Below, piece after piece: positions 32,074-50,226 of a stretch of 64,000 nt of DNA. The translations under genes were made by a program, and so were the position numbers. Source of the DNA: Burkholderiales bacterium (GTDB lineage Bacteria; Pseudomonadota; Gammaproteobacteria; Burkholderiales; Burkholderiaceae_C); assembly GCA_040007475.1 (NCBI GenBank), contig JBDTVC010000002.1, positions 4,921-68,920 of the forward strand, written 5' to 3'. Below the pieces are notes generated by a model that worked only from the letters and a program-made list of their open reading frames with translations, was not told where the DNA came from and did not search any database. How positions within the stretch are numbered: the first letter of the stretch is position 1; each line of letters opens with the position of its first letter.

Positions 32074-33750
32074 TCAGCGATTCACTTCGTCGGGCGGCAG
32101 CGGCGCGAGCTGCGAGTGGCGGATTCGCGTCTTGCTCAGGGCGCCGGCCGATTCGAGGATCGGGTAGGCGATCGAGCAGATGTGCGAGTTGATGCGTTTG
32201 AGGTCGCTGATCAGGTCGATGTGAAGCGAGCTGGTCTCGATGCTCTGCGCCGTGTTGTCCTGCAGCCGGCCGATGTGGCTGGCGGCGTACTCGTGCTCGA
32301 GGTCACGGAAGCGCGCCTTCTCTTCGAGCAGCTTCTGCGCATCGCGCACATGGCCGTCGAGGAACACGCTCATTCCGAGCCGCAGGTTCGACATCAGCCG
32401 CTCGTGCAGGTGCACGATCTCGGCCATGCCGGCATCCGAGAAGCTGCGCGCCTTGCGGATCTTCTTGTCCTCGATGTCCTGGATCACGCGCTCGATGATG
32501 TCGCCGATCTGCTCCATGTTGATCGTGAACGAGACGATGTCGGTCCAGCGCCGGCTCTCCTCCTTCGATAGCGCCTCGCCCGAGATCTGGGTCAGGTAGA
32601 ACTTGATCGCCGAGTACAGCTCGTCGACCGTGTCGTCCATCTTGCGCAGCTGCTCGGCCAGCGCGAGGTCGTTGTGCTTGAGCACTGGCAGGATGCCGCG
32701 CATCATGGTTTCGACGATGTCGGCCTGGTGCAGTGCCTCACGTGCCGCGCAGGTGATCGCCAGCGACGGCGTGGCGAGCGCAGATGGGTCGAGGTGGCGC
32801 GGGCGGGCCATGTCGGCCGACAGCCGCGGCTCTTTCAGCGCGCGCTCGACGGTGCGTCCGACCAGCCCGGTGAAGCTGATGAACACCAGCGCCAGCGCCA
32901 CGTTGAAGCCGAGGTGGAAGAACACGACCTGCTGGTGCACATCCGGCACCAGCTGTCGCAGCGCGATGTGGACTTGCGGCATCAAGGGGATCGCGCCGAC
33001 CGCACCGACCGCCTTGAAGATCAGGTTGCCCATCGGCAGCCGCCGCACCTGCGGCGAGGCTCCGCTGGTCGCGATCATCGCGAGCAGGCCGCTGCCGAGG
33101 TTGGCGCCGAGCACCAGGCCGAGCGCGACCGGCACGGGGAGCAGGCCGGAACTCGCGAGCGTGGCGGTCAGCAGCACGATCGCCAGGCTCGAGTACGAGA
33201 ACACTGTGAGCACCGCACCGACGACGATGTCGAGCAGGATCTCGTTCGGCAGCGCGACGAGCAGCGCGCGCACCGCGGGCGATTCGGTCAGCGGGCGTGT
33301 GGCGCCGACGATCAGCTGCAGCGCGAGGGTGATCAGCCCGAGCCCGATCAGCACGCGGCCGATGCGGCCGGCGACGGTGTCTTGCCGCGAGATGAACATC
33401 ACGACGCCGGTGAAGATCAGCAGCGGCGACAGCCATGACAGGTCGAACGAGAACACGACCGCCATCAGGGCTGTGCCCACGTCGGCGCCCAGAATGACCG
33501 CCAGCGCGGCGGCGGTCGCGACCAGGCCCTTGCCAACGAACGACGCGACGATCAGGCAAGTGGCTGTGCTCGATTGCACGACGGTCGTGACGCCCAGGCC
33601 TGCGACGAGCGCGGTGAAACGGTTGCTGAAGCTCTTGGCGAGGACGCTGCGCAGGCTTTCACCGAAGACGCGCAGCACGCCGGTGCGGACGATGTGCGTG
33701 CCCCAGACGAGCAGAGCGATGGCGGCGAGCAGGTTGAGAAGGTGGATCAT
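32074..33750 (-). CDS. Na+/phosphate cotransporter-family protein with C-terminal PhoU-like domain (NptA/YjbB type)
   Basis: 558 aa. The N-terminal half is polytopic and contains the duplicated SSTATCLI-type motif. The C-terminal half is helical and PhoU-like (MDDTVDELYSAIKFYL). Confidence 0.85.
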   Translation of the reverse strand: MIHLLNLLAAIALLVWGTHIVRTGVLRVFGESLRSVLAKSFSNRFTALVAGLGVTTVVQSSTATCLIVASFVGKGLVATAAALAVILGADVGTALMAVVFSFDLSWLSPLLIFTGVVMFISRQDTVAGRIGRVLIGLGLITLALQLIVGATRPLTESPAVRALLVALPNEILLDIVVGAVLTVFSYSSLAIVLLTATLASSGLLPVPVALGLVLGANLGSGLLAMIATSGASPQVRRLPMGNLIFKAVGAVGAIPLMPQVHIALRQLVPDVHQQVVFFHLGFNVALALVFISFTGLVGRTVERALKEPRLSADMARPRHLDPSALATPSLAITCAAREALHQADIVETMMRGILPVLKHNDLALAEQLRKMDDTVDELYSAIKFYLTQISGEALSKEESRRWTDIVSFTINMEQIGDIIERVIQDIEDKKIRKARSFSDAGMAEIVHLHERLMSNLRLGMSVFLDGHVRDAQKLLEEKARFRDLEHEYAASHIGRLQDNTAQSIETSSLHIDLISDLKRINSHICSIAYPILESAGALSKTRIRHSQLAPLPPDEVNR

Positions 33751-33759
33751 CGAGTCAGG

Positions 33760-35202
33760 TCAGGCCCAGGGCAACGAATAGGTCTTGGTATTCGTGAAGC
33801 TCTTCATCGCTTCCTGGACGCCTTCCTTGTACCCCAATCCCGAGTCCTTGATGCCGCCGAAGGGTGTCAATTCCAAACGGTAGCCGGGCACCTCGCGCAC
33901 ATTGACCGTGCCGACCTGAAGCTCCGAAACGAACCGGCTGATGTAGTCGAGGCGGTTCGTGCACACGGCCGACGACAGACCGTAGGCGGTCCCGTTGCTG
34001 ATGCGGATCGCCTCGTCGATGCACGCGAAGGTGATGATCGGCGAGATGGGGCCGAAGGTCTCCTGCATCGCGACGGTCATGTCGGGGCGCACGCGATCGA
34101 TCACGGTGGGTGAGTACAGCGCGCCTTGCCGCCGGTTGCCGACAAGCAGGCGCGCGCCTTGCGCGATCGCCTCATCGACGCGCGACTCGAACAGCCGCGC
34201 CGCTTCCTCGTCGATCACCGTGCCCATCTCGTTCTTCAGGTCGCTCGGGTCGCCGTGCGACCAGGCTTTCGTCTTCTCGACCACCAGGTCGGTGAAGCGT
34301 GCAGCCACAGCCTCGTGCACCAGCATCCGCTTCACCGCGGTGCAGCGCTGACCCGAGTTCTTGTACGAGCCTTGCACCGCGAGCGTCGAGGCCTCGTCGA
34401 GGTCGGCGTCCTCCATCACGATGATCGGGTCGTTGCCGCCAAGCTCGAGCACCATGCGCTTGTAGCCGGCGGTCTTCGCGATGTACTTGCCAATCGCCAC
34501 GCCGCCGGTGAAGGTGACGAGGTCGACATCGGCGTTCGTGATCAGCTCGTCGGCGATCTCGCGCGGGTCGCCGGTCACGACCGAGAGCATCTCCGGCGGC
34601 AGGCCGGCCTCGTACAGCAGATCGGCGAAGAGCAGGGCCGACAGCGGCACCTTCTCGGAGGGTTTCAGCACCATCCGGTTGTTGGTCGCGATCGACGGCA
34701 CGACCTTGTGCGCAACCTGGTTCATCGGGTGGTTGAATGGCGTGATCGCGGTGATCACGCCGAGCAGGGGATCGCGCTGCGTGTAGACGCGGCGCTTCTT
34801 GCCGTGGGGCGTGAGGTCGCACGAGAAGATCTGACCGTCGTCCTTCAGGCACTCGTTGGCGCCGAACACCAGCACGTCGGCAACGCGGCCGGCTTCGTAG
34901 GTCGCATCCTTCAGGCTCAGGCCGGCCTCGGCGCTGATCAGCGCGGCGATCTGCGCGGTGCGCTCGCGCACGAGCAGCGCGGTCTTGTTCAGGATGTTCG
35001 AGCGCTCGAAGCGCGTCAGCGCGGCCTTGTAGGCCTTGCCGATCGCGAACGCCCGGCGCACGTCGTCGAGCGTGGCCTTGGGCACGCTGGCGATCGGCTG
35101 GTTCGTGAACGGATTGAAGACGACGATGCAGCGATCGCCGATGCGGTCCGTGCCGACCGTTTCGCCGGCTAATCTCATCCCGTGATTCTGGATCGCGTTC
35201 AT
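33760..35202 (-). CDS. phnY: Aldehyde dehydrogenase, predicted phosphonoacetaldehyde dehydrogenase
   Basis: ALDH motifs ELGGNDP and catalytic Cys GQRCTAVKR; 480 aa. Lies 4 nt downstream of the phosphonoacetate hydrolase gene. Substrate assignment is by context. Confidence 0.75.
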   Translation of the reverse strand: MNAIQNHGMRLAGETVGTDRIGDRCIVVFNPFTNQPIASVPKATLDDVRRAFAIGKAYKAALTRFERSNILNKTALLVRERTAQIAALISAEAGLSLKDATYEAGRVADVLVFGANECLKDDGQIFSCDLTPHGKKRRVYTQRDPLLGVITAITPFNHPMNQVAHKVVPSIATNNRMVLKPSEKVPLSALLFADLLYEAGLPPEMLSVVTGDPREIADELITNADVDLVTFTGGVAIGKYIAKTAGYKRMVLELGGNDPIIVMEDADLDEASTLAVQGSYKNSGQRCTAVKRMLVHEAVAARFTDLVVEKTKAWSHGDPSDLKNEMGTVIDEEAARLFESRVDEAIAQGARLLVGNRRQGALYSPTVIDRVRPDMTVAMQETFGPISPIITFACIDEAIRISNGTAYGLSSAVCTNRLDYISRFVSELQVGTVNVREVPGYRLELTPFGGIKDSGLGYKEGVQEAMKSFTNTKTYSLPWA

Positions 35203-35206
35203 TGCG

Positions 35207-37279
<2,073 letters not shown>

Positions 37280-37330
37280 TCAAGAAACAGTTGACGACCC
37301 ATTCGCGCCACCCCTAGACTGAAACCCAGC

Positions 37331-37346
37331 GGGCACAGCGCTTGCA
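37331..37346 (+). promoter_or_regulatory. Sigma54 (RpoN) promoter of the phnS operon
   Basis: GGGCAC-AGCGC-TTGCA compared with consensus TGGCAC-N5-TTGCA. The GG (37332-3) and GC (37344-5) have the canonical 12-nt register. It lies 36 nt upstream of the phnS ATG, with AGGAGA as the RBS in between. Confidence 0.7.
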
Positions 37347-37381
37347 GCATCCCATCGGTCGATCCCTCTCAGGAGAATTGC

Positions 37382-38431
37382 ATGAATCTGGGTACCTTCA
37401 AGCCGCTGTTCGCGGTGCTGGCCATGGTGTCGGGTATGGCGGTTACCACCGCGGCCTTCGCGCAGAAGACGCAGCTCACCGTGTACACCGCGCTCGAGAC
37501 CGATCAGCTCAAGGCCTACGAGGCCGGCTTCACCAAGGTCAACCCCGACATCGAGATCAAGTGGGTGCGTGACTCCACTGGCGTGATCACCGCCAAGCTG
37601 CTGGCCGAGAAGGCGAACCCCCAGGCCGATGTGGTGATGGGTGTGGCCGCGTCCAGCCTCGCGCTGCTCGACACGAACGGCATGCTGATCCCGTACGCGC
37701 CGCTGAATCTCGACGGCATCATGAGCCAGTACCGTGACAAGAAGAACCCGCCGGCGTGGTTCGGCATGGACGTCTGGGGCGCGACCGTCTGCTTCAACAC
37801 CGTCGAGGCGCAGAAGAAGAACATCCCGAAGCCCGAGACCTGGAAAGACCTGACCAAGCCGGTCTACAAGGGCCAGATCGTGATGCCGAACCCGGCCTCG
37901 TCGGGCACCGGCTTCTTCGACGTGAGCGCGTGGCTCACGCTCTGGGGCGACGACAACGGCAAGGGCGGCGGCTGGAAGTTCATGGACGCGCTGCACGAGA
38001 ACATCGCGCAGTACACCCACTCGGGTTCGAAGCCCTGCAACATGGCGGCGACCGGCGAGTACGTGCTCGGCATCTCGTTCGAGTACCGCGGCAACACCAA
38101 CAAGGCCAAAGGCGCGCCGATCGACCTGGTGTTCCCGAAGGAGGGCCTGGGCTGGGACCTGGAAGCCTTCGCGATCCATGCCGGCACCAAGAAGCTCGCC
38201 GCGGCGAAGAAGCTCGCCGATTGGGCCTCGAGCAAGGACGCGATGAAGCTCTACGGCAAGAACTTCGCGATCACCGCGATCCCCGGCGTCGCCGAGCCGC
38301 TGAAGAACGTGCCGGCCGACTACGAAGCGCGTCTCGTGAAGATGGACTTCGCGACCACCGCGAAGAACCGCGAGCGGGTCTTGGCTGAGTGGAACAAGCG
38401 TTACGACACCAAGAGCGAAGCGAAGAAGTGA
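37382..38431 (+). CDS. phnS: 2-aminoethylphosphonate-type ABC transporter substrate-binding protein
   Basis: Signal peptide MNLGTFKPLFAVLAMVSGMAVTTAAFA; 349 aa. An Fe3+/spermidine-like SBP fold of the phnS2 type, followed by a matching ATPase and a fused permease. Confidence 0.8.
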   Translation: MNLGTFKPLFAVLAMVSGMAVTTAAFAQKTQLTVYTALETDQLKAYEAGFTKVNPDIEIKWVRDSTGVITAKLLAEKANPQADVVMGVAASSLALLDTNGMLIPYAPLNLDGIMSQYRDKKNPPAWFGMDVWGATVCFNTVEAQKKNIPKPETWKDLTKPVYKGQIVMPNPASSGTGFFDVSAWLTLWGDDNGKGGGWKFMDALHENIAQYTHSGSKPCNMAATGEYVLGISFEYRGNTNKAKGAPIDLVFPKEGLGWDLEAFAIHAGTKKLAAAKKLADWASSKDAMKLYGKNFAITAIPGVAEPLKNVPADYEARLVKMDFATTAKNRERVLAEWNKRYDTKSEAKK

Positions 38432-38452: not shown

Positions 38453-38520
38453 GCCCGAGCGCCCGGCCGCCCGAAGCCGGGCGAGACCCCCTTGGGGGGT
38501 GGTCGCTGTATTCGGCGACC
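38453..38520 (-). repeat. REP-like three-hairpin repeat, copy D (inverted orientation) inside the phnS-phnT spacer
   Basis: GCCCG-AGCGCCCGGCCGCCCGAAGC-CGGGC, then ACCCCC-TTG-GGGGGT, then GGTCGC-TGTATTCG-GCGACC. The same three modules as copies A to C, in reverse order and orientation. Confidence 0.7.
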
Positions 38521-38530
38521 GGGGGCTGAC

Positions 38531-39583
<1,053 letters not shown>

Positions 39584-39603: not shown

Positions 39604-41322
39604 GTGTCCGCCGTCCTGACTTCGCCCGTGGCCGCGCTGCGCCAGCGCGCGCACTGGACCGACCGCATCGCGCACCTCGCGTTGCTGCTCGTCGTGCTGG
39701 CACTCGTGGTGTTTCTCGCACTGCCGCTGGCAAGCATCCTCGTCAAGGCGCTGCAGAGCAGCGATGGTGCGTTCGTCGGGTTGGTCAACTTCACGAGCTA
39801 CCTGGCGTCGCCGTCGCTGCTGACGTCGCTGTGGCACAGCGTGTGGATCTCGGCCGTCGTCACGGTCGTCACGCTGCCGCTGGCCTTCGGCTTCGCCTAC
39901 GCGCTGTCGCGCAGCTGCATGCCGTTCAAGGGGCTCTTTCGCACGATCGCGTTGATTCCGCTGCTGGCGCCGTCGCTCCTGTCGGCGCTGTCGCTGATCT
40001 ACTGGTTCGGCAACCAGGGGCTGGCGCGCGGGCTGATCCAGCGCCTGGGCTTCGAGAACATCTATGGCGCGCCGGGCATCGTCTTGGCCGAATGCTTCGC
40101 GGTGTTCCCGCACGTGCTGATGATCCTGATCACCGCGTTGTCGCTCGCCGACGCGCGGTTGTACGAAGCGGCGAACGCGCTGGGCACCGGCACGCGCCGC
40201 AAGTTCTTCACGATCACGCTGCCGGGCGCGAAGTACGGGCTGATTTCGGCCGCGTTGGTCGGGTTCACGCTGGTGATGACGGACTTCGGCATCCCGAAAG
40301 TGATCGGCGGCAACTTCAACATGCTCGCCACCGACGTGTTCAAGCTCGTGATCGGCCAGCAGGACTTCCAGCGCGGCGCCGTCGTCGGCCTGCTGCTGCT
40401 GACGCCGGCGCTGCTCACTTTCGGCATCGACTGGCTGGTGCAGCGAAAGCAGACGGCGATGCTGAGCGCGCGCGCGGTGCCGCTCAGGCCGAAGCCGTCG
40501 CGCGGGTTCGACGCGCTGATGCTCGGCTACGTCGGCCTCGTCAGCGCGCTGATGCTGGCGATGCTCGGCATGGCCGTCTTCGCCTCGTTCGCGACCTACT
40601 GGCCCTACAACCTGGCGCCGAGCTGGAAGCACTACACGATGGGCTTCGTCGACGCCGAGGTCGGCGAGGCCTTTCTGAACAGCCTGAAGCTCGCCGCCGG
40701 AACGGCGTTCTTCGGCACCATCGTCGTCTTCGTCGGCGCCTACATGCTCGAGAAGACCCGCGGCCTCGACGCGATCCGCCCGTTGGTGCGCCTGCTCGCG
40801 ATGCTGCCGATGGCGGTGCCGGGGCTGGTGCTCGGCCTCGGCTACATCTTCTTCTTCAACGCGCCCGGCAATCCGCTGAACGGTCTCTACCAGACGCTGA
40901 CGCTGCTCGTGATCTGCACCATCGTCCACTTCTACACGACCGGCCACCTGACGGCGGTGACGGCGCTGAAGGCGCTCGACGCGGAGTTCGAATCGGTCTC
41001 GGCCTCGCTGAAGGTGCCGTTCTTCAAGACCTTCTGGCGCGTCACGCTGCCGATCTGCACGCCGACCTTGCTCGACATCGCGCGCTACTTCTTCATCAAC
41101 GCGATGACGACGATCTCGGCGGTGGTCTTCTTGTACTCACCCTCGACCAAGGTCGCGTCGATCGCGATCCTGAACCTCGACGAAGCCGGCGAGGCCGGCG
41201 CCGCCGCGGCGTGCGCGGTACTCATCACGGCCGGTTCGACAGTCGTGACGCTGCTGTTCATCGCCCTGGGCTGGTGGGTGGACAAGCGGACTCAGGCCTG
41301 GCGCAACACGGCCACCCGATAG
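39604..41322 (+). CDS. phnU: AEP-type ABC transporter permease (fused double permease)
   Basis: About 572 aa with about 12 TM and two permease modules. There is no in-frame ATG near the 5' end, so GTG at 39604 (20 nt after the phnT stop) was chosen. The start is uncertain. Confidence 0.8.
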   Translation: MSAVLTSPVAALRQRAHWTDRIAHLALLLVVLALVVFLALPLASILVKALQSSDGAFVGLVNFTSYLASPSLLTSLWHSVWISAVVTVVTLPLAFGFAYALSRSCMPFKGLFRTIALIPLLAPSLLSALSLIYWFGNQGLARGLIQRLGFENIYGAPGIVLAECFAVFPHVLMILITALSLADARLYEAANALGTGTRRKFFTITLPGAKYGLISAALVGFTLVMTDFGIPKVIGGNFNMLATDVFKLVIGQQDFQRGAVVGLLLLTPALLTFGIDWLVQRKQTAMLSARAVPLRPKPSRGFDALMLGYVGLVSALMLAMLGMAVFASFATYWPYNLAPSWKHYTMGFVDAEVGEAFLNSLKLAAGTAFFGTIVVFVGAYMLEKTRGLDAIRPLVRLLAMLPMAVPGLVLGLGYIFFFNAPGNPLNGLYQTLTLLVICTIVHFYTTGHLTAVTALKALDAEFESVSASLKVPFFKTFWRVTLPICTPTLLDIARYFFINAMTTISAVVFLYSPSTKVASIAILNLDEAGEAGAAAACAVLITAGSTVVTLLFIALGWWVDKRTQAWRNTATR

Positions 41323-41332
41323 CGAGCACACG

Positions 41333-42133
41333 ATGACCCACGAACGATCCGACCTGCGACTGGCCGTCGCGCAGCAGCCGATGGAATGGACCACCGAGCG
41401 CAACGTGTTGCACATGATCACGGCGCTCGAGCTGGCGGCGGCACAGGGCGCGCAGCTCTGCCTGTTCCCCGAACTCGCGCTGACCGGGTTCCACCGGCAG
41501 GTTCGCGAGCAGGCGCGACCGGAGATCGTCGGGCCGGCGCTGCGGCGCGTGCGCGCGGCCTGCCGCGATGCCCGCGTCGCCAGCCTGATCGGGCTGCCGA
41601 CGTTCGGTGCCGATGGCGCGGTGTTGAACAGCTACGCGTTGGTCGACGCGGAGGGTGCCGTGGGCGCGACGATCCACAAGAACGGGCTGACGGCGGCCGA
41701 GCTGACCTTCTTCGCGGCCGGCACCGAGCGGCCGCTGACGCGCTTCGCCGGGCGCAATTGCACGACCGTGATGTGCCGCGAGATCGAGGACGTCGATGCG
41801 ATCGCAGCGCAGCTGGCCGATGAATCGGTTCAGCTCGTCTTCTGGCCGTCGATCGTCGGCTACCCGCCGGGCACGATCGCCGAGCCGGAGCGCGCCGTGC
41901 AGGGCCTGGGTTACCGCCAGCGCGCGGGCGAGTTCGCGCGGCGCTTCAACGCACACCTCGTGCAATGCAACTGGCCGCACGCGCTCAACACGCCGGAGCG
42001 CAACTACCAGGGCGAGAGCAAGGCCTACGGGCCCGATGGCGAGGTCCTGCTGACGTTGCCGCGCGACGAGGCCGGGCTGGCCGTCTTCGATCTCAGCGCG
42101 CGTGATTTTCAATGGACGCCGATGCCGGCGTGA
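41333..42133 (+). CDS. Carbon-nitrogen hydrolase (nitrilase-superfamily amidase)
   Basis: 266 aa. Candidate Glu-Lys-Cys triad in [16 protein letters not shown] and VMCREIED. Confidence 0.8.
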
Positions 42134-42152: not shown

Positions 42153-43256
42153 ATGGACCGCGACGCCATCCTGCTGACCCCCGGCCCGCTGACGACCACC
42201 TTGCGCACCAAGCTCGCGATGCTGCGCGACTGGGGGTCGTGGGACACCGACTTCATCAAAGTCACCGCCGAGCTGCGGCGCCAGCTGCTTGCGATCGTGC
42301 ATGGCGAGGCCTCGCACACGGTCGTGCCCTTGCAAGGCAGCGGTACCTTCTCGGTCGAGGCGGCCGTCGCGACCGTGGTGCCTCGCGACGGTCACATGCT
42401 GGTGCTCGACAACGGCGCGTACTGCAAGCGGCTGGGCAAGCTCGCGACGCTGATGGGCCGGCGCACGACGATCATGGAGCACGCCGAGGACCAGGCCGTG
42501 TCGGCGCCCGCGCTGGACGCCAAGCTGAGCGAAGACCCGAGCATCACCCACGTCGGCTTCATCCACTGCGAGACCGGCACCGGCGTGCTGAACCCGCTGC
42601 AGGCGGTCAGCGAGGTCTGCGCGCGCCACGGCAAGGGGCTGATCATCGATGCGATGAGCTCGTTCGCCGCGCTGCCGATCGATGCGCGCGAGGTTCGGTT
42701 CGATGCGCTCGTGGCGGCCAGCGGCAAGTGCCTGGAGGGCGTGCCGGGCATGGGCTTCGTGTTCCTGCGCAAGGACATCCTGGCCGGTTGCGAGGGCCAA
42801 TCGCACTCGCTGGCGATGGACCTGTTCGACCAGCATGCCTATATGGAGAAGACCGGCCAGTGGCGCTTCACCCCGCCGACGCACGTGGTGGCGGCGCTGG
42901 CCGAGGCGCTGCGCCAGTACGAGGAGGAGGGCGGCCAGACCGCGCGCCTGGCGCGCTACACCGACAACTGCCGCACGCTGATCGACGGGATGCAGGCGCT
43001 GGGCTTCAAGCCGTTCCTGCCGGCGGCGCTGCAGGCGCCGATCATCGTGACGTTCCACGCCCCGGCCGATCGCGCCTACGAGTTCCGACCCTTCTACGAA
43101 GCGGCCAAGCAACGAGGCTTCATCCTGTACCCGGGTAAGCTGACGCAGGTCGAGACCTTTCGCGTCGGCTGCATCGGCGCGATCGGACGCAACGAGATGC
43201 AGCAGGCCGTGAACGCGGTCTCCGATTCGATGCGCGCGCTCGGCATCACCACCTGA
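42153..43256 (+). CDS. phnW: 2-aminoethylphosphonate:pyruvate aminotransferase
   Basis: [34 protein letters not shown] is the characteristic PhnW N-terminus; class-V aminotransferase, 367 aa. AGGAGA is the RBS. Confidence 0.9.
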
Positions 43257-43266
43257 GGATATTGCG

Positions 43267-44637
43267 ATGGCACAGAAGGAACATCCGGCACTTGCCGCCG
43301 TCCGCAAGTCGGGCACCGGCAAGGTCAAGGTCGCGGTCAGCGACATCGACGGGATCCTGCGTGGCAAGTACCTCCACATCGACAAGTTCCTCGGCGCCGC
43401 GGAGCCGCACCCGAACGGCGGCTTCGGCTTCTGCGACGTGGTGTTCGGCTGGGACGCGAACGACAACTGCTACGACAACGCGACGCTGACCGGCTGGCAG
43501 CACGGCTTCCCGGATGCGCTGGCGCGGCTCGATCTCGGCACGCACCGCCACGTGCCGTGGGACGACGGCGTGCCGATGTTCCTTGGCGAGTTCGTCAACG
43601 GCGACGGCAGCCCCTCGCCGATCTGCCCGCGCCAGACGCTCAAGCGTGTGCTCAAGCGCGCCGGGAAGCTCGGCGTGCTGCCGATGGCCGGCATGGAGTT
43701 CGAGTGGTTCAACTTCAGTGAAACGCCGCAGAGCTGGGCCAGCAAGCGCGGCGTCGGTCCGGAGCCGATCACGCCGGGCATGTTCGGCTATTCACTGCTG
43801 CGCATGAACCACAAGCGCGAATTCTTCAAGGCGCTGATGGACGAGATGCCGCTGTTCGGCGTGCCCATCGAAGGCCTGCATACCGAGACCGGGCCCGGTG
43901 TCTACGAAGTGGCCATCGCGTTCAGCGAGGCGCTCGAGCAGGCCGACCGTGCGATCCTGTTCAAGACCGGCGCGAAGGAGATCGGCGCGCGCTTCGGCGT
44001 GATGCCCAGCTTCATGGCGAAGTGGAACCAGCAGCTGCCGGGCTGCTCGGGGCACATCCACCAGAGCCTGTCGGACGGCAAGACGAATCTGTTCTTCGAC
44101 GCGAAGTCGCCGCGCAAGATGAGCAAGCTGTTCGAGAGCTACCTCGCGGGTCAGGTCGCATGCCTGATGGAGATGGCGCCGATGTTCTGGCCGACGATCA
44201 ACAGCTACAAGCGGCTGGTCGACGGCTTCTGGGCACCGGTCAAGCCGACCTGGGGCATCGACAACCGCACGGCGAGCTTTCGCGTGATCGCCGGCAGCCC
44301 GAAGGCCACGCGTCTCGAGACGCGCTGCCCTGGTGCCGACGTGAACCCGTACCTCGCGATGGCCGCGGTGATCGCCGCCGGCCTGCACGGTGTCGAGAAG
44401 GGCCTGAAGCTCACCGCGCCGCCGATCACCGGCACCAATGGCGGGGCAGAGCACATCCCGCGCGCGCCGCGCACGCTGATCGAGACGACGATCAATTTCA
44501 AGCAGTCGACCATCGCCCGCGACTGGTTCGGCGACGACTTCGTCGACCACTTCGCGGCCACGCGCGAGTGGGAGTGGCGGCAGTGGCTGGACGGCGTGAC
44601 CGACTGGGAACTGAAGCGCTACTTCGAGATCATCTGA
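43267..44637 (+). CDS. Glutamine-synthetase-family ligase (predicted gamma-glutamyl-amine synthetase, PuuA/GlnA-like)
   Basis: 456 aa with GS catalytic-domain strings GMEFEWF, HTETGPGVYEVA, GCSGHIHQSL, NSYKRL and NRTASFRV. It lacks the GlnA adenylylation loop seen in the true glnA at 53704. Confidence 0.8.
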   Translation: MAQKEHPALAAVRKSGTGKVKVAVSDIDGILRGKYLHIDKFLGAAEPHPNGGFGFCDVVFGWDANDNCYDNATLTGWQHGFPDALARLDLGTHRHVPWDDGVPMFLGEFVNGDGSPSPICPRQTLKRVLKRAGKLGVLPMAGMEFEWFNFSETPQSWASKRGVGPEPITPGMFGYSLLRMNHKREFFKALMDEMPLFGVPIEGLHTETGPGVYEVAIAFSEALEQADRAILFKTGAKEIGARFGVMPSFMAKWNQQLPGCSGHIHQSLSDGKTNLFFDAKSPRKMSKLFESYLAGQVACLMEMAPMFWPTINSYKRLVDGFWAPVKPTWGIDNRTASFRVIAGSPKATRLETRCPGADVNPYLAMAAVIAAGLHGVEKGLKLTAPPITGTNGGAEHIPRAPRTLIETTINFKQSTIARDWFGDDFVDHFAATREWEWRQWLDGVTDWELKRYFEII

Positions 44638-46220
44638 TGAATGCGTGGGTCACCCGGATCGTTGCCCTGGCCTTGTGCGCCGCCGCAGGCACCGCGAACG
44701 CGGTCACGCTGCGAATCGCCAGTGCGTTCGACCCGCAGACGATGGACCCGCACGCGATCGCGCTGCTGTACCAGACGCGCGTCTCGGCGCAGGTCTACGA
44801 GTCGCTGCTCAATCGTGACGAACGGTTCCAGCTGGAGCCCTCGCTTGCGCTGTCGTGGCAGGCGGTGAGCCCGACCCTGTGGCGCTTCAAGCTGCGGCCC
44901 GGCGTGTTTTTCCACGACGGCACGCCGTTCACGGCCGATGATGCGGTGTTCTCGTTCGACCGCGCGATGGCGCCGCCCTCGCAGCGCTCGTTCCAGCTCA
45001 AAGGCGTGAAGGCGGTCCGCAAGGTCGACCTGCTGACGATCGAGATCGACCTCGAGGCGCCCGATTCGGTGCTGCCCGAGAAACTCACGCAGCTCGGCAT
45101 GGTGAGCAAGGCCTGGTGCGTGAAGCACGGCGTCGAGAAGGCCCAGGACTTCAACGGCAAGCAGGAGACCTTCGCGGTGCGCAACGCCAACGGCACCGGC
45201 CCGTTCGCGCTCGACCGCTTCGAGCCGGACGTGCGGACCGTGCTCAAGCGCAACCCGCGCTGGTGGGGTGGCCGTGAGCAGGGCGCCGACAAGCGCAACG
45301 GCAATCTCGACGAGGTCACGCTGGTCGCGATCCGCTCCGACGCCACGCGCATTGCCGCGCTGATCTCGGGCGAGATCGACCTGGTGCTGGACCCGCCGGT
45401 GCAGGATGTCGAGCGCCTGAAGGGCGAGTCGGCGATCAAGCTGCAGCAGATCACCGACCTCGGCCAGCAGTACCTCGCGCTGGACGTCGGTCGCGACGAG
45501 CTGACCGACAGCGACGTGAAGGGCAAGAACCCGTTCAGGGACCTGCGCGTGCGCCGGGCGATCTACCACGCGTTGAACATGCCGCTCCTGACTCAGAAGG
45601 TCTTGCGCGGCCTGGGTGTGCCGACCGGTGCGTTCCTGTCGCCCCGCGTCGACGGCTCGCCGCCGGAGCTCGACAAGCGATTGCCTTACGACGTGGTGGA
45701 GGCGAAGGCGCTGCTCACAGAAGCCGGGTATCCGAACGGCTTCGCGATCACGCTGGATTGCGTCAATGTGCCGTGGCGCGAGGCGGCCTGCCAGGCCATG
45801 GCCGCGATGCTGACGCAAGCCGGGATCCGCGCGACGATGCGCAGCGCGCCGACCAACCAGTTCTTCCCGAAGCTGACCGGCGCGACCGCGAGTTTCATGG
45901 AGTTCGGCTGGACGCCGAGCCCCGACGCGTGGGCATCGTTGAACGCGCTGTTCCGCACCTGGGACAAGTCGGGCGGCGGCACCTTCAACGGCGGCCGCTA
46001 CAGCAACGCGAAGCTCGACGCCTTGATCGACAATCTGCGCGTCGAGCCCGACCTGACCCGTCGCCGCGCGATGGTCGGCACCGTACTGCGGATGGTCGGC
46101 GACGACCTGCCGCTGATCCCGTTGTATCGCCGCACGCTGACCTGGGCGATGAGCAACAAGGTCAGCACCGTTCAATGGCCCAACGACTCGCCCGAGTTGC
46201 GCTGGGTTCGCCTCAAGTAA
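44637..46220 (+). CDS. Family-5 (peptide/opine/nickel-type) ABC substrate-binding protein, orphan
   Basis: Signal peptide MNAWVTRIVALALCAAAGTANA; 527 aa. The ATG shares one nt with the upstream TGA. No cognate permease or ATPase genes are adjacent. Confidence 0.8.
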   Translation: MNAWVTRIVALALCAAAGTANAVTLRIASAFDPQTMDPHAIALLYQTRVSAQVYESLLNRDERFQLEPSLALSWQAVSPTLWRFKLRPGVFFHDGTPFTADDAVFSFDRAMAPPSQRSFQLKGVKAVRKVDLLTIEIDLEAPDSVLPEKLTQLGMVSKAWCVKHGVEKAQDFNGKQETFAVRNANGTGPFALDRFEPDVRTVLKRNPRWWGGREQGADKRNGNLDEVTLVAIRSDATRIAALISGEIDLVLDPPVQDVERLKGESAIKLQQITDLGQQYLALDVGRDELTDSDVKGKNPFRDLRVRRAIYHALNMPLLTQKVLRGLGVPTGAFLSPRVDGSPPELDKRLPYDVVEAKALLTEAGYPNGFAITLDCVNVPWREAACQAMAAMLTQAGIRATMRSAPTNQFFPKLTGATASFMEFGWTPSPDAWASLNALFRTWDKSGGGTFNGGRYSNAKLDALIDNLRVEPDLTRRRAMVGTVLRMVGDDLPLIPLYRRTLTWAMSNKVSTVQWPNDSPELRWVRLK

Positions 46221-46233
46221 CCGGCTTCGCACC

Positions 46234-47373
46234 ATGAGCATCACCCGCTTCTCGTTCCCGACCATCATCCATTTCGGCGCCGGCGCGCGCGCGCTCGCCG
46301 GGCCGCACCTGAAGGACCTCGGGCTGCGCCGCCCGCTGATCGTCACCGACAAGGGCTTGGCCGCGCTGCCGCTGATGAAGGAGTTCGCTGCCGGCCTCGA
46401 TTCGGCCGGGCTCGCGGTGGCGGTGTACGGCGGCGTGTTCGGCAACCCGACCGGCAGCCAGGTGATGGGCGGTGCCGCGGCCTACAAGGCACACGAAGCG
46501 GACTGCGTGATCGGCGTGGGTGGCGGTGCTGCGCTCGATGTGGCCAAGGTCGTCGGCCTGCTGGCCACGCACCCCGGCGACGTGATGGAGTACGTCTGGG
46601 ATCACCCGCAGGTCCGCGCGATCGATCCGGCCATGTTGCCGTACTTCATCGCGCTGCCGACCACCTCGGGCACCGGCAGCGAGGTCGGCCGCAGCAGCGT
46701 GATCAGCGAGGAGGAGTCGCACGTCAAGCGCGTGATCTTCTCGCCGGCGATCCTTGCCAAGGTGGTGTTCGCCGACCCCGAACTCACGCTCGGCCTCCCG
46801 CCGGCCGTGACCGCGGCGACCGGCATGGACGCGCTCACGCACAACATCGAGAGCTACCTCTCGCCCGCGTACCACCCGCTGTGCGACGGCATCGCGCTCG
46901 AAGGCACGCGCATCGCCGCGCGTGCGCTGCTGACGGCGGTGCGCGAGCCGGGCAACGTGCAGGCGCGCGCCGACATGATGATGAGCTCGATGATGGGTGC
47001 GATCGCATTCCAGAAAGACCTGGGCGCGGTGCACTCGTGCGCGCATGCGCTCGGCACGGTGTGCGACCTGCACCACGGTCTGGCCAACGCGCTGATGATC
47101 GAGCCGGTGATGAGCTACAACCGCGAAGCGGTGCCGCACAAGTTCGCCGAACTCGCGCACGCTGTTGGCGTGTCGTCCGTGAGCGGCTTCGTGCCGTGGC
47201 TGGCACACCTGAAGCAACGGGTCGGTATCCCGCCAGGGCTGGCCGCTGCCGGTGTCAGGCGCGAGCAGATTCCGCGGTTGGTCGAGATCGCCACGCGGGA
47301 CATCTGCCACCAGACCAATCCGCGCCCCTGCGAGGCGGCCGATTTCGAGCGCTTCTTCAAGGAAGCGTACTGA
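46234..47373 (+). CDS. Group-III iron-containing alcohol dehydrogenase
   Basis: 379 aa with VIGVGGGAALDVAK and His-rich metal-site strings (HNIESY, HSCAHALG). Confidence 0.85.
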   Translation: MSITRFSFPTIIHFGAGARALAGPHLKDLGLRRPLIVTDKGLAALPLMKEFAAGLDSAGLAVAVYGGVFGNPTGSQVMGGAAAYKAHEADCVIGVGGGAALDVAKVVGLLATHPGDVMEYVWDHPQVRAIDPAMLPYFIALPTTSGTGSEVGRSSVISEEESHVKRVIFSPAILAKVVFADPELTLGLPPAVTAATGMDALTHNIESYLSPAYHPLCDGIALEGTRIAARALLTAVREPGNVQARADMMMSSMMGAIAFQKDLGAVHSCAHALGTVCDLHHGLANALMIEPVMSYNREAVPHKFAELAHAVGVSSVSGFVPWLAHLKQRVGIPPGLAAAGVRREQIPRLVEIATRDICHQTNPRPCEAADFERFFKEAY

Positions 47374-47374
47374 C

Positions 47375-48181
47375 ATGGCCAAGCCTCTCATCATCGGCAT
47401 CTCGGCGCGCATCCACCATCCGGTCGGGCCGGTCCGCGACCTCGGCGGCGTCTATGCCAAGACGCTGCACTACCTCGAACAATCGGTCGCGCACTGGGTG
47501 CTCGCGAAAGACGTGCTCGCGGTGATGATCCCCGCGATCGAGAGCCAGGGCCTGATCGAGCGGAGCGAGATGAGCCTGAGCTCGTACGCCGAGTACCTCG
47601 ATGGCCTGGTGTTGCAGGGCGGCGCCGACATCGCGCCGCAGAGCTACGGCGAGACGCCACTGCACGCCGACTGGGCTGGCGACGCGGTGCGCGACCGCTA
47701 CGAGATCGATCTGTTCAACGCCTTCGTGGCCGCCGGCAAGCCGGTGATCGGCATCTGCCGTGGCTGCCAGCTTATCAACGTGGCGCTGGGCGGCACGCTG
47801 TTCCAGGACATCCCGACACAGCTGCCTTCAGCCGTCTCGCACCGCGACACCTCGATGTACGAGCGCGCGCTCCACGACGTGAGCTTCGTCGCCGGCTCGA
47901 AGCTGGCCACGCTGTACCCGGGCAGGGCGCAATCGAAGATCAACACCATCCACCACCAGGCCGTGAAGGACCTGGGCCGTGACCTGGTGATCGAGGCGGT
48001 GGGCGTTCCCGACGGCGTGGTCGAGGCGATCCGCTGGCGCGGGCCGAGCTATGTGTTCGGGATGCAATGGCACCCCGAGTTCCTCGCGCTGGCCACGCTC
48101 GACCAGGCGCAGCTGGACGGGGGCCCGATCCTGAAGGACTTCCTCGACAACGCGCGTGCCTGCCGCGACGCAATGACCTGA
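47375..48181 (+). CDS. Gamma-glutamyl-gamma-aminobutyrate-hydrolase-like amidotransferase (peptidase C26, PuuD family)
   Basis: Begins MAKPLIIGISAR. Nucleophile Cys in GICRGCQLINVALGG and His in MQWHPEF. Starts 1 nt after the ADH stop. Confidence 0.85.
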   Translation: MAKPLIIGISARIHHPVGPVRDLGGVYAKTLHYLEQSVAHWVLAKDVLAVMIPAIESQGLIERSEMSLSSYAEYLDGLVLQGGADIAPQSYGETPLHADWAGDAVRDRYEIDLFNAFVAAGKPVIGICRGCQLINVALGGTLFQDIPTQLPSAVSHRDTSMYERALHDVSFVAGSKLATLYPGRAQSKINTIHHQAVKDLGRDLVIEAVGVPDGVVEAIRWRGPSYVFGMQWHPEFLALATLDQAQLDGGPILKDFLDNARACRDAMT

Positions 48182-48193
48182 CTCCACCTCACC

Positions 48194-49561
48194 ATGCTGA
48201 AGATCCACAACCCCGCCACCGGCGCGCTGATCGCCGAAGTCCCCGAGGCCACGCCGGAGATCGTCGCCGAGCGCTTCCGTGCCGCGCGCGCCGCGCAACC
48301 GGCGTGGTTCGCCACCCCGCTGGAGGCGCGGCTGCAGGTGATGCAGCGCTTCCGCGTCGCGGTGGCGGCCGAGGTCGAATCGCTGGCGTCCACGCTGACG
48401 GCCGAGGTCGGCAAGCCGATCCGGCAGTCGCGCAACGAGCTGAACGGCTTGCTCGGCCGCGTCGACTTCTTCCTGACGCAGGCGGCGGCCACCCTGGCGC
48501 CGCAGCAGGTGTTCGACGAAGGCGGCACGCGCGAGGTCATCAGCTTCGACCCGCTCGGCGTGATCGCGAACATCTCGGCCTGGAACTACCCGTACTTCGT
48601 CGGCGGCAACGTGTTCGTGCCGGCGTTGCTGGCCGGCAATGCGGTGCTGTACAAGCCTTCGGAGTTCGCCACGCTCACGGGCCTGCACATCGCGCGGCTG
48701 CTGCATGAGTCGGGCGTGCCGCTCGACATCTTCGTGCCGCTGGTCGGCCGCGGTGAAGTCGGCGCCGCGCTGCTCGCGCAGAATATCGACGGCGTGTTCT
48801 TCACCGGCTCTCATGCGACCGGCGCAAAGATCGCGCAGACCGTCGGCCCGCGCTTCATCAAGCTGCAGCTTGAACTCGGCGGCAAGGACCCGACCTACGT
48901 CGCCGAAGACGCCGATCCGAAGATCGCCGCCGAGTCGCTCGCCGACGGCGCGATGTACAACGCCGGCCAGAGCTGCTGTTCGGTCGAGCGCATCTACGTG
49001 CACGAAAGCATCCACGATGCCTTCGTCGACGCGTTCGTCGACACGGTGCGCGGCTTCAGGATGGGCAACCCGACCAGCGAGGAGACCTACATCGGCGCGA
49101 TCACGCGCGCGCCGCAACTCGACGTGCTCGACGCACAGGTCGCCGACGCGCAAGCCAAGGGCGCGACGCTGCGCACTGGCGGCCACCGAGCGGCGGGGCC
49201 AGGCAACTGGTTCGAGCCCACGGTGTTCACCGGCGTGAACCACACGATGGAGTTGATGCGCGAGGAGAGCTTCGGGCCGGTCATCGGCATCCAGAAGGTC
49301 GCCAGCGACGCCGAGGCTCTGGCGCTGATGAACGATACGCGCTACGGCCTGACGGCCGGCGTGTTCACGAAGGACGAGGCGAGAGCACGTGCGCTGCTCG
49401 CGAAGGTCAACGCTGGCAGCGTCTACTGGAACTGCTGCGACCGCGTCAGCCCGCGGCTGCCGTGGTCTGGGCACGGCGATTCGGGTGTCGGTCTGACCTT
49501 GTCCACGTTCGGCATCCAGACCTTCACGCGGCCGCGTGCGTGGCATCTGCGCCAACCGTGA
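48194..49561 (+). CDS. NAD(P)-dependent aldehyde dehydrogenase
   Basis: 455 aa with ELGGKDP and catalytic Cys GQSCCSVERIYV. Confidence 0.88.
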   Translation: MLKIHNPATGALIAEVPEATPEIVAERFRAARAAQPAWFATPLEARLQVMQRFRVAVAAEVESLASTLTAEVGKPIRQSRNELNGLLGRVDFFLTQAAATLAPQQVFDEGGTREVISFDPLGVIANISAWNYPYFVGGNVFVPALLAGNAVLYKPSEFATLTGLHIARLLHESGVPLDIFVPLVGRGEVGAALLAQNIDGVFFTGSHATGAKIAQTVGPRFIKLQLELGGKDPTYVAEDADPKIAAESLADGAMYNAGQSCCSVERIYVHESIHDAFVDAFVDTVRGFRMGNPTSEETYIGAITRAPQLDVLDAQVADAQAKGATLRTGGHRAAGPGNWFEPTVFTGVNHTMELMREESFGPVIGIQKVASDAEALALMNDTRYGLTAGVFTKDEARARALLAKVNAGSVYWNCCDRVSPRLPWSGHGDSGVGLTLSTFGIQTFTRPRAWHLRQP

Positions 49562-50226
49562 CGCGGCTGGCGCTGTTCGATCTCGACCACACGCTGTTGA
49601 CGGGCGACAGCGATGTGCTGTGGTGCGAATTCCTGATGGACGCCGGCGTGCTCGACCGTGCCGAGTTCGAGCCGCGCAATGCCGACATGGCGCGCCGTTA
49701 CGGCGACGGCAGCGTCAGCGCGGCGGACTTCTGCGATTTCTACGTGTCCACACTCGCCGGCCGCACGCTGAGTGAGTGGCGGCCATGGTGCGAGCGTTTC
49801 CTGAGCGAAGTGATCGCGCCGAGGATCCCCGCCTCGGCGCGTGCCCTGGTCGAGTCGCACCGCGAGCGCGGCGACCGGATCGTGATGACGACCGCGACGA
49901 ACCGGGTGCTCACCGAGCTGACGGCGCAGCACCTCGGCATCGACGACCTGCTCGCAACCGAGGTCGAAGTGATCGGCGGCCGCTGCAGCGGCCGCACCCG
50001 GGGAGTGCTGAACATGAGGGAAGGCAAGGTCGAACGGCTGAAGTCTTGGTTGGCCGATCAGGGATGGCCGGCCGACGCGCTGGCCGGTGCCGTGTTCTAC
50101 AGCGATTCGGCGAACGACCTGCCGCTGCTTCGCTCGGTCGGGCAGCCCATCGTCGTCGATCCTGACCCGCAACTGCGGCGGCACGCGGCGATGGCCGGAT
50201 GGTCACTTGTGGAATTGGCCCGCTGA
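49558..50226 (+). CDS. HAD-IB family phosphatase (SerB-like subfamily)
   Basis: The GTG start overlaps the ALDH stop (GTGA). Motif [10 protein letters not shown], motif with TATN, and late motif [11 protein letters not shown]. Confidence 0.75.

Follow-up and report, generated by a model that had tools for sequence, protein, structure and literature searches.

Bacterial clusters for the degradation of 2-aminoethylphosphonate (AEP) have repeatedly given new enzymes through which more phosphonates become usable, such as PbfA, PbfC/D and PbfF. The Pbf enzymes (the lyase PbfA, the oxidoreductases PbfB, PbfC and PbfD, and the racemase PbfF) are encoded by extra genes within an AEP cluster, as is the amidase presented here, and like the amidase PbfF is confined to a narrow taxon (PMC12366243). 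The amidase differs from them in superfamily and chemistry, and its wider family is found mostly outside phosphonate clusters. The nitrilase superfamily, the AEP operon and the notion of ancillary enzymes are already known. Neither an amidase in an AEP operon nor the superfamily branch of the protein, P0001, is described in the sources searched. Nothing relevant that connects a nitrilase, C-N hydrolase or amidase with AEP or phnW was found in the literature searched, and the preliminary description of this DNA, which had stated that no C-N hydrolase is part of the canonical AEP pathways, agrees with the AEP-catabolism literature covered by that search.

The best structural match of P0001 was NitN, a short-chain aliphatic amidase from Nesterenkonia sp. 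AN1 (PDB 3hkx, 4izs; Foldseek E 2.5e-19, TM 0.77-0.78, 26-28% identity). The two proteins are alike in single-domain size and in the Glu/Lys/Glu/Cys tetrad, but remote in sequence (45 bits). After the catalytic Glu the P0001 family has GFHR where NitN has GFGY, and at the nucleophile the family has C-R-E; as these motifs are unlike those of NitN, the substrate is expected to be different and probably charged. By sequence, no PDB entry came closer to P0001 than the glutaminase domain of NadE (e.g. PDB 5kha; 55 bits), which was also the best NCBIfam match and the second structural neighbour of P0001 in the ESM Atlas. NadE, however, carries C-E-D at the nucleophile instead of C-R-E, and P0001 is devoid of the synthetase domain. 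Further structural matches in the PDB were NadE glutaminase domains and N-carbamoylputrescine amidohydrolase. Nit2, Nit1 and YafV share with P0001 the superfamily, the form of a small soluble amidase and a scattered, housekeeping-like distribution. In the classification of Pace and Brenner, one branch of the nitrilase superfamily carries a RimI-like GNAT domain fused to the N-terminus. The P0001 family is similar in having GNAT fusions and GNAT neighbours, whereas P0001 itself is unfused and its operon contains no GNAT gene.

The window (the whole stretch of 64,000 nucleotides that was analysed) belongs to a Rhizobacter-like Burkholderiales MAG from the rhizosphere, and a single study supplied the four rhizosphere metagenome runs in which the DNA was present. 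The amidase gene is situated inside a PhnR-controlled PhnW/PhnY/PhnA locus, between phnU2 and phnW, with phnR, phnA and phnY adjacent. The locus contains the following features.

33760..35202, minus strand: phnY, phosphonoacetaldehyde dehydrogenase (TIGR03250, 845.7 bits, over cut-off)
35207..36433, minus strand: phnA, phosphonoacetate hydrolase (TIGR02335, 592 bits, over cut-off)
36433..37236, minus strand: phnR, Burkholderia-type GntR/FCD regulator, divergent from phnS2 (TIGR03338, 333.8 bits, over cut-off)
37237..37381, no strand: divergent promoter region (consensus matches only, no statistical enrichment)
37382..38431, plus strand: phnS2, AEP-type ABC substrate-binding protein (TIGR03261, 498 bits, over cut-off)
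38492..39583, plus strand: phnT2, ABC ATPase (TIGR03265, 509.7 bits, over cut-off)
39667..41322 (start approximate), plus strand: phnU2, fused ABC permease (TIGR03262, 788 bits, over cut-off)
41333..42133, plus strand: CN hydrolase P0001, predicted cytoplasmic thiol amidase of 266 aa, from a rare small branch of the nitrilase superfamily
42153..43256, plus strand: phnW, AEP-pyruvate transaminase (over cut-off; NF010006 573 bits, TIGR02326 505 bits; AGGAGA ribosome-binding site)
43267..44637, plus strand: glutamine-synthetase-like (GS-like) gamma-glutamyl ligase, 10 nt after phnW, opening an ethanolamine-type gamma-glutamylation module
~44700-46220: SBP5, orphan family-5 binding protein, in the gamma-glutamylation module string
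46234-47373: Fe-ADH, Fe-alcohol dehydrogenase, in the same string
~47390-48181: C26 (PuuD-like) hydrolase, in the same string
48194-49561: ALDH, aldehyde dehydrogenase, in the same string
~49565-50226: HAD-IB phosphatase, last gene of the gamma-glutamylation string

The gap from the end of phnU2 (41322) to the amidase is 10 nt and that from the amidase stop to the phnW start (42153) is 19 nt, exactly as had been reported. No PhnX above cut-off was found in the host genome, and the AEP route is therefore PhnW, PhnY and PhnA. Directly downstream of phnY, a Na/Pi cotransporter-PhoU fusion (32074-33750, minus strand) was observed; its position is kept in congeners, which ties phosphate handling to the locus.

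Promoter-like signals upstream of the amidase were confined to the intergenic region between phnR and phnS2, and neither an internal promoter signal nor a convincing terminator was found within the string from phnS2 to the HAD gene. Two sigma70-like sites at 37250-37320 were consensus matches that were not enriched. A sigma54-like site of the type GGGCAC-N5-TTGC, GGGCACAGCGCTTGC (37331-37345, 37 nt upstream of the phnS2 start), was a one-mismatch match to the consensus and was not enriched over shuffles. The same region holds an AT-rich near-palindrome, TTGATTGTCAACAATT, as a candidate element that could be the PhnR operator.

The gamma-glutamylation gene set downstream of phnW matches the ethanolamine pathway of Phaeobacter and Streptomyces (PMC10132767, PMC6529630). 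Its HAD-IB phosphatase reached 229 bits with NF052360, a histidinol-phosphatase model whose cut-off is 280, and may act on an amino-alcohol phosphate such as phosphoethanolamine. The module (GS-like, Fe-ADH, C26, ALDH, HAD) also follows or flanks the AEP importer and phnW in other genera of the Burkholderiales, where it was seen at 10 or more of the 40 PhnW loci (L153-L156, L159-L161, L163, L164 and L169). This pairing is far wider than that with the amidase and suggests that AEP is used together with an amino alcohol such as ethanolamine or phosphoethanolamine.

The amidase gene is an uninterrupted ORF of 266 codons, whose translation contains no stops. P0001 scored 74.3 bits against PF00795, CN_hydrolase (E 1.3e-20, residues 9-256), which is above the gathering threshold of 23.2, and together with the translation this bears out the 266-aa carbon-nitrogen hydrolase of the preliminary description. 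The Glu/Lys/Cys triad that it had taken to be intact was found with the quoted motifs in place, E47 in FPELALTGF, K116 in IHKNGL and C148 in MCREIED, and with E123, another glutamate, the usual tetrad is complete. Its four residues were invariant across family alignments of 22 and of 49 sequences. The same was true for H54 and R55 (motif ELALTGFHR), for R133 and for R149-E150 right after the nucleophile, and 34 positions were near-invariant in all 49 aligned sequences. Four of these residues are specific to the family, namely H54, R55, R133 and, adjoining Cys148, R149; their presence around the active site suggests that the substrate is probably anionic.

The AlphaFold model of P0001 (mean pLDDT 85.7, pTM 0.87) has a nitrilase fold, and the best 50 PDB matches to this predicted alpha-beta-beta-alpha sandwich all belonged to the superfamily, with TM values reaching 0.79. 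The homologues recovered numbered more than 200, and the dN/dS of 0.11-0.14 in close pairs corresponds to purifying selection. From the homologues, the predicted fold and the dN/dS we concluded that this is a genuine gene and not a chance ORF. The dN of the amidase was 2-3 times that of the neighbouring genes, and this faster change at the protein level could mean that the constraint on it is relaxed. An N-terminal hydrophobic stretch was not found in P0001, which was therefore taken as cytoplasmic.

P0001 might be a known enzyme under a new name, either a generic omega-amidase/deaminated-glutathione amidase (Nit1, Nit2, YafV) or an N-carbamoylputrescine amidase. Many of the homologues are labelled 'omega-amidase' by JGI and mouse Nit2 was among the structural matches (TM 0.77), but its identity to P0001 is only 16%, and in P0001 an Arg follows the catalytic Cys. 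No NCBIfam equivalog was matched above its cut-off. The score was 34.2 bits for PRK10438 (YafV; cut-off 249) and 24.1 bits for AguB, TIGR03381 (cut-off 410.25), which places P0001 outside the omega-amidases and the N-carbamoylputrescine amidases as these models define them, and the deaminated-glutathione/omega-amidase models NF043013 and NF033621 gave no match. An NAD+ synthetase is not indicated either, with 43.4 bits for the NadE model (cut-off 479) and no second domain in the 266 aa. Moreover, the same genome already encodes two Nit1-like amidases, which match those models better, a nitrilase, NadE and Lnt, so that P0001 is a sixth distinct member and not the omega-amidase of the organism. 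We regard identity with one of these known enzymes as very improbable.

Close orthologues were drawn from a genus sample, GTDB representatives and one ENA contig. In high-GC loci, genes were placed by tblastn mapping and from the called genes of the contigs. In at least 12 species-level genomes they were 53-85% identical to P0001 and all occupied the slot between phnU2 and phnW, and in several relatives the amidase had an ATGA-type overlap with phnU2. The phn-linked clade with the order phnU2-amidase-phnW was monophyletic (SH-aLRT 96). A different arrangement was found in L062, where the amidase is located between phnT2 and phnU2, overlapping phnT2 by 14 nt. This amidase falls in the other main clade of the family, and its nearest relative (64% identity) is free-standing. 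Forcing every phn-linked sequence into one clade cost 25 lnL with a p-AU of 0.027, where the constrained group was named after inspection of the tree and L062 is one noisy long-read MAG. In the phnW tree L062 was sister to L118 (support 100), which has the usual phnU2-amidase-phnW order, and the DNA of the two operons was 79-82% identical everywhere but in the amidase, which occupies different slots. We read this as one paralogue having been swapped for another at a different site, that is as a second recruitment. Of the signs that the AEP operon has a use for the activity, such a replacement in sister operons is the strongest. None of the genomes searched contained both a phn-linked and an unlinked copy of the family.

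The L118 locus (an ENA contig of 383 kb, amidase present) is itself unusual in that the divergent phnR, phnA and phnY as well as the C26 hydrolase are missing; an M20 peptidase, a PALP enzyme and a DOPA-dioxygenase-like gene replace phnR, phnA and phnY.

Nine congeners have the same operon without the amidase. Their common locus consists of Na/Pi-PhoU, phnY, phnA, phnR, phnS2, phnT2 and phnU2, followed after a clean phnU2-phnW junction by phnW, the GS-like gene, SBP5, ADH, C26, ALDH and HAD. The junctions were 23-55 nt long, one 272 nt, and no remnants of the amidase were detected in these operons. Six of the nine genomes, two of them about 100% complete, have no family member whatever. The amidase is thus dispensable to the operon, judging from the gene content of these nine congeners. 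Outside this lineage no CN hydrolase was found within about 7 kb of PhnW at any of the 40 loci from other Burkholderiales genera. The observed recurrence of the amidase in AEP clusters amounts to at least 12 species of one lineage plus the second recruitment.

On the phnW tree presence and absence of the amidase were intermingled, requiring 3 to 7 changes, and the amidase alleles were incongruent with the flanking genes; hence the amidase behaves as a recombining cassette. Both observations would also fit a mobile housekeeping amidase that was inserted by chance at a tolerant intergenic site, spread through recombination between conserved flanks and is functionally untied to phosphonate or amine catabolism. 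Free-standing relatives in many unrelated contexts, including one inside a thiC/thiO-like gene pair, favour such a passenger, and so does the mosaic nature of the rest of the operon, in which phnT2 occurs in two allele classes. However, the two sister operons hold two different paralogues in two slots, the gene is under purifying selection, its slot is kept in all of the at least 12 close orthologues, and its tight or overlapping spacing suggests translational coupling. A chance passenger therefore appears rather unlikely to us.

Further differences were noticed among these operons. The phnT2 alleles were either 67-72% or 85-92% identical to the copy in the window, in operons that were otherwise 84-92% alike (L034, L041, L127, L128 and L129 compared with L125, L131 and others), from which we concluded that the operon is a recombination mosaic. 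Between the amidase and phnW, two Rhizobacter operons (L037:6656-7603 and L042:678-1634) have in common an insert of about 950 nt that is 86% alike and contains only short ORFs. Another insert, of about 850 nt and 69% alike, is shared between phnW and the GS-like gene by L130:8622-9481 and L132:1051-1897.

The family of P0001 is very small and rare. A phmmer search of 1.84 billion cluster representatives gave 54 matches at E <= 1e-30, a number that rose to 834 at E <= 1e-3. Of the 60 GTDB loci that were found via the two signature peptides of the family, about 48 were not phn-linked. The free-standing members had as neighbours YidC and RecQ, a DppA-like binding protein, MoeA with an S9 peptidase, thiC with a thiO-like oxidase, a PEP-synthase regulator with HAD, GNAT with NUDIX, DJ-1 with GNATs, HemL, 5-aminolevulinate synthase, AMP nucleosidase, purine nucleoside phosphorylase and a UrtBC-like permease pair. 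A conserved partner gene was sought among them, but no single theme emerged. Neighbours that at first looked like aminotransferases proved to be HemL and 5-aminolevulinate synthase. The transporters nearby were the DppA-like binding protein, the UrtBC-like permease pair and a nucleoside/B6-type system. In Ideonella livida (L068:6011-9955) the family member lies between thiC and the thiO-like FAD oxidase with a 4-nt overlap.

GNAT genes recur beside family members (L081, L117, L134 and L140), and in two cluster representatives, P0221 (434 aa) and P0248 (429 aa), an N-terminal Acetyltransf_3 GNAT is fused to the amidase. No fused forms were detected among the longer proteins searched with P0001; the fusions surfaced through other searches. 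Fusion and adjacency together are a possible Rosetta-stone clue to the general function of the family, and the fusion hints at a quite different role, on peptides or N-acetyl compounds.

The expected co-occurrence of the clade with phnW held in part, as the close orthologues were always phn-linked and the distant family members were not. Two findings had been named beforehand as speaking against a role in phosphonate use, namely orthologues without phn linkage elsewhere and a generic omega-amidase or N-carbamoylputrescine amidase; the former applies to the distant members, whereas by curated models P0001 is not recognisable as either enzyme. Pelomonas Root1237, Ramlibacter paludis and Ideonella livida possess the family in the absence of PhnW, and two of these three isolates are also without the GS-like ligase. 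The 49-sequence alignment contained no residue that was fixed in the phn clade but differed in the other. We also compared PhnS2, PhnT2, PhnU2, PhnW and the GS-like protein for residues that vary in step with the amidase being present or absent; the only positions to stand out lay in the PhnS2 signal peptide, and no residue of mature PhnS2 or PhnW co-varied with the amidase. The varied contexts, the PhnW-less genomes and the lack of clade-specific or co-varying residues together point to the same chemistry inside and outside the operon, and to a substrate not confined to AEP catabolism.

These observations bear on the possibility that the amidase acts as a funnel similar to the Pbf enzymes, unblocking an AEP-related amide for the core pathway, either N-carbamoyl- or N-acyl-AEP to give AEP for PhnW or phosphonoacetamide to give phosphonoacetate for PhnA. 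In its favour, the close orthologues all lie between the importer and phnW, the replacing paralogue is in the importer segment too, and a phosphonate would suit the invariant Arg and His residues. The succession of beta-ureidopropionase and beta-alanine transaminase offers a parallel to such a step. Ancillary enzymes that feed AEP analogues into the pathway also have a precedent in PbfA, PbfC/D and PbfF (PMC8154272, PMC10590968, PMC12366243). On the other hand, the invariant residues of the family are identical in PhnW-less genomes, the mature PhnS2 and PhnW do not follow the amidase, nine congeneric operons do without the gene and it was not found at the 40 PhnW loci of other genera. The literature searched yielded neither a natural N-carbamoyl-AEP nor a catabolic role for N-acetyl-AEP, which appeared there only as the PhnO product. 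A funnel of this kind is accordingly considered unlikely. Put in its strongest form, as a dedicated ancillary phosphonate enzyme that frees AEP or phosphonoacetate from amide-blocked phosphonates of the rhizosphere (N-carbamoyl-, N-acyl- or gamma-glutamyl-AEP, phosphonoacetamide), we find the idea distinctly unlikely.

Established here are the fold and the catalytic residues, the action of purifying selection, the position in the operon, the polymorphism for presence or absence and the replacement of one paralogue by another. Our tentative preference, which we hold as possible and somewhat short of probable, is an accessory amidase that is coupled to the operon and whose substrate is a small amide, probably anionic and not specific to AEP. 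In the proposed mechanism Cys148 would form the thioester with Glu47 serving as the base, and the intermediate would be stabilised by Lys116 and Glu123. The gene would share a transcript with the AEP importer and phnW, starting at the PhnR-controlled promoter, and translational coupling to the genes of the operon may occur in several relatives. Among Rhizobacter-like bacteria it behaves as an optional cassette recombining in and out of the operon. The substrate is most likely a small amide, probably anionic and not AEP-specific, that the free-standing relatives would hydrolyse as well. Its recruitment might be explained by an activity that is useful once an operon for the scavenging of N and P is switched on, for which there are two plausible uses, the release of ammonia from an amide or the clearance of an amide by-product. 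Counting against the operon-coupled amidase are the nine congeneric operons without the gene and the recruitment in L062, which was seen in one MAG with a p-AU of 0.027. The faster protein-level change of the amidase and the GNAT fusion in its family also speak against this reading.

The association of the amidase with the AEP operon is narrow, as an optional add-on limited to one group of soil bacteria. Within this group the locus is a clean natural experiment, comprising near-identical operons with the gene, without the gene and with a replacement paralogue, which makes a comparative phenotype test straightforward. If the substrate were a blocked aminophosphonate, the amidase would open a new entry point into the P and N cycle of the rhizosphere, and if it were a dedicated ancillary enzyme it would stand for a new activity of the nitrilase superfamily and for a class of phosphonates not yet recognised as a nutrient. 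If the substrate is instead a general amide, the locus would provide the first functional handle on this rare branch, through its co-expression with AEP and amino-alcohol scavenging.
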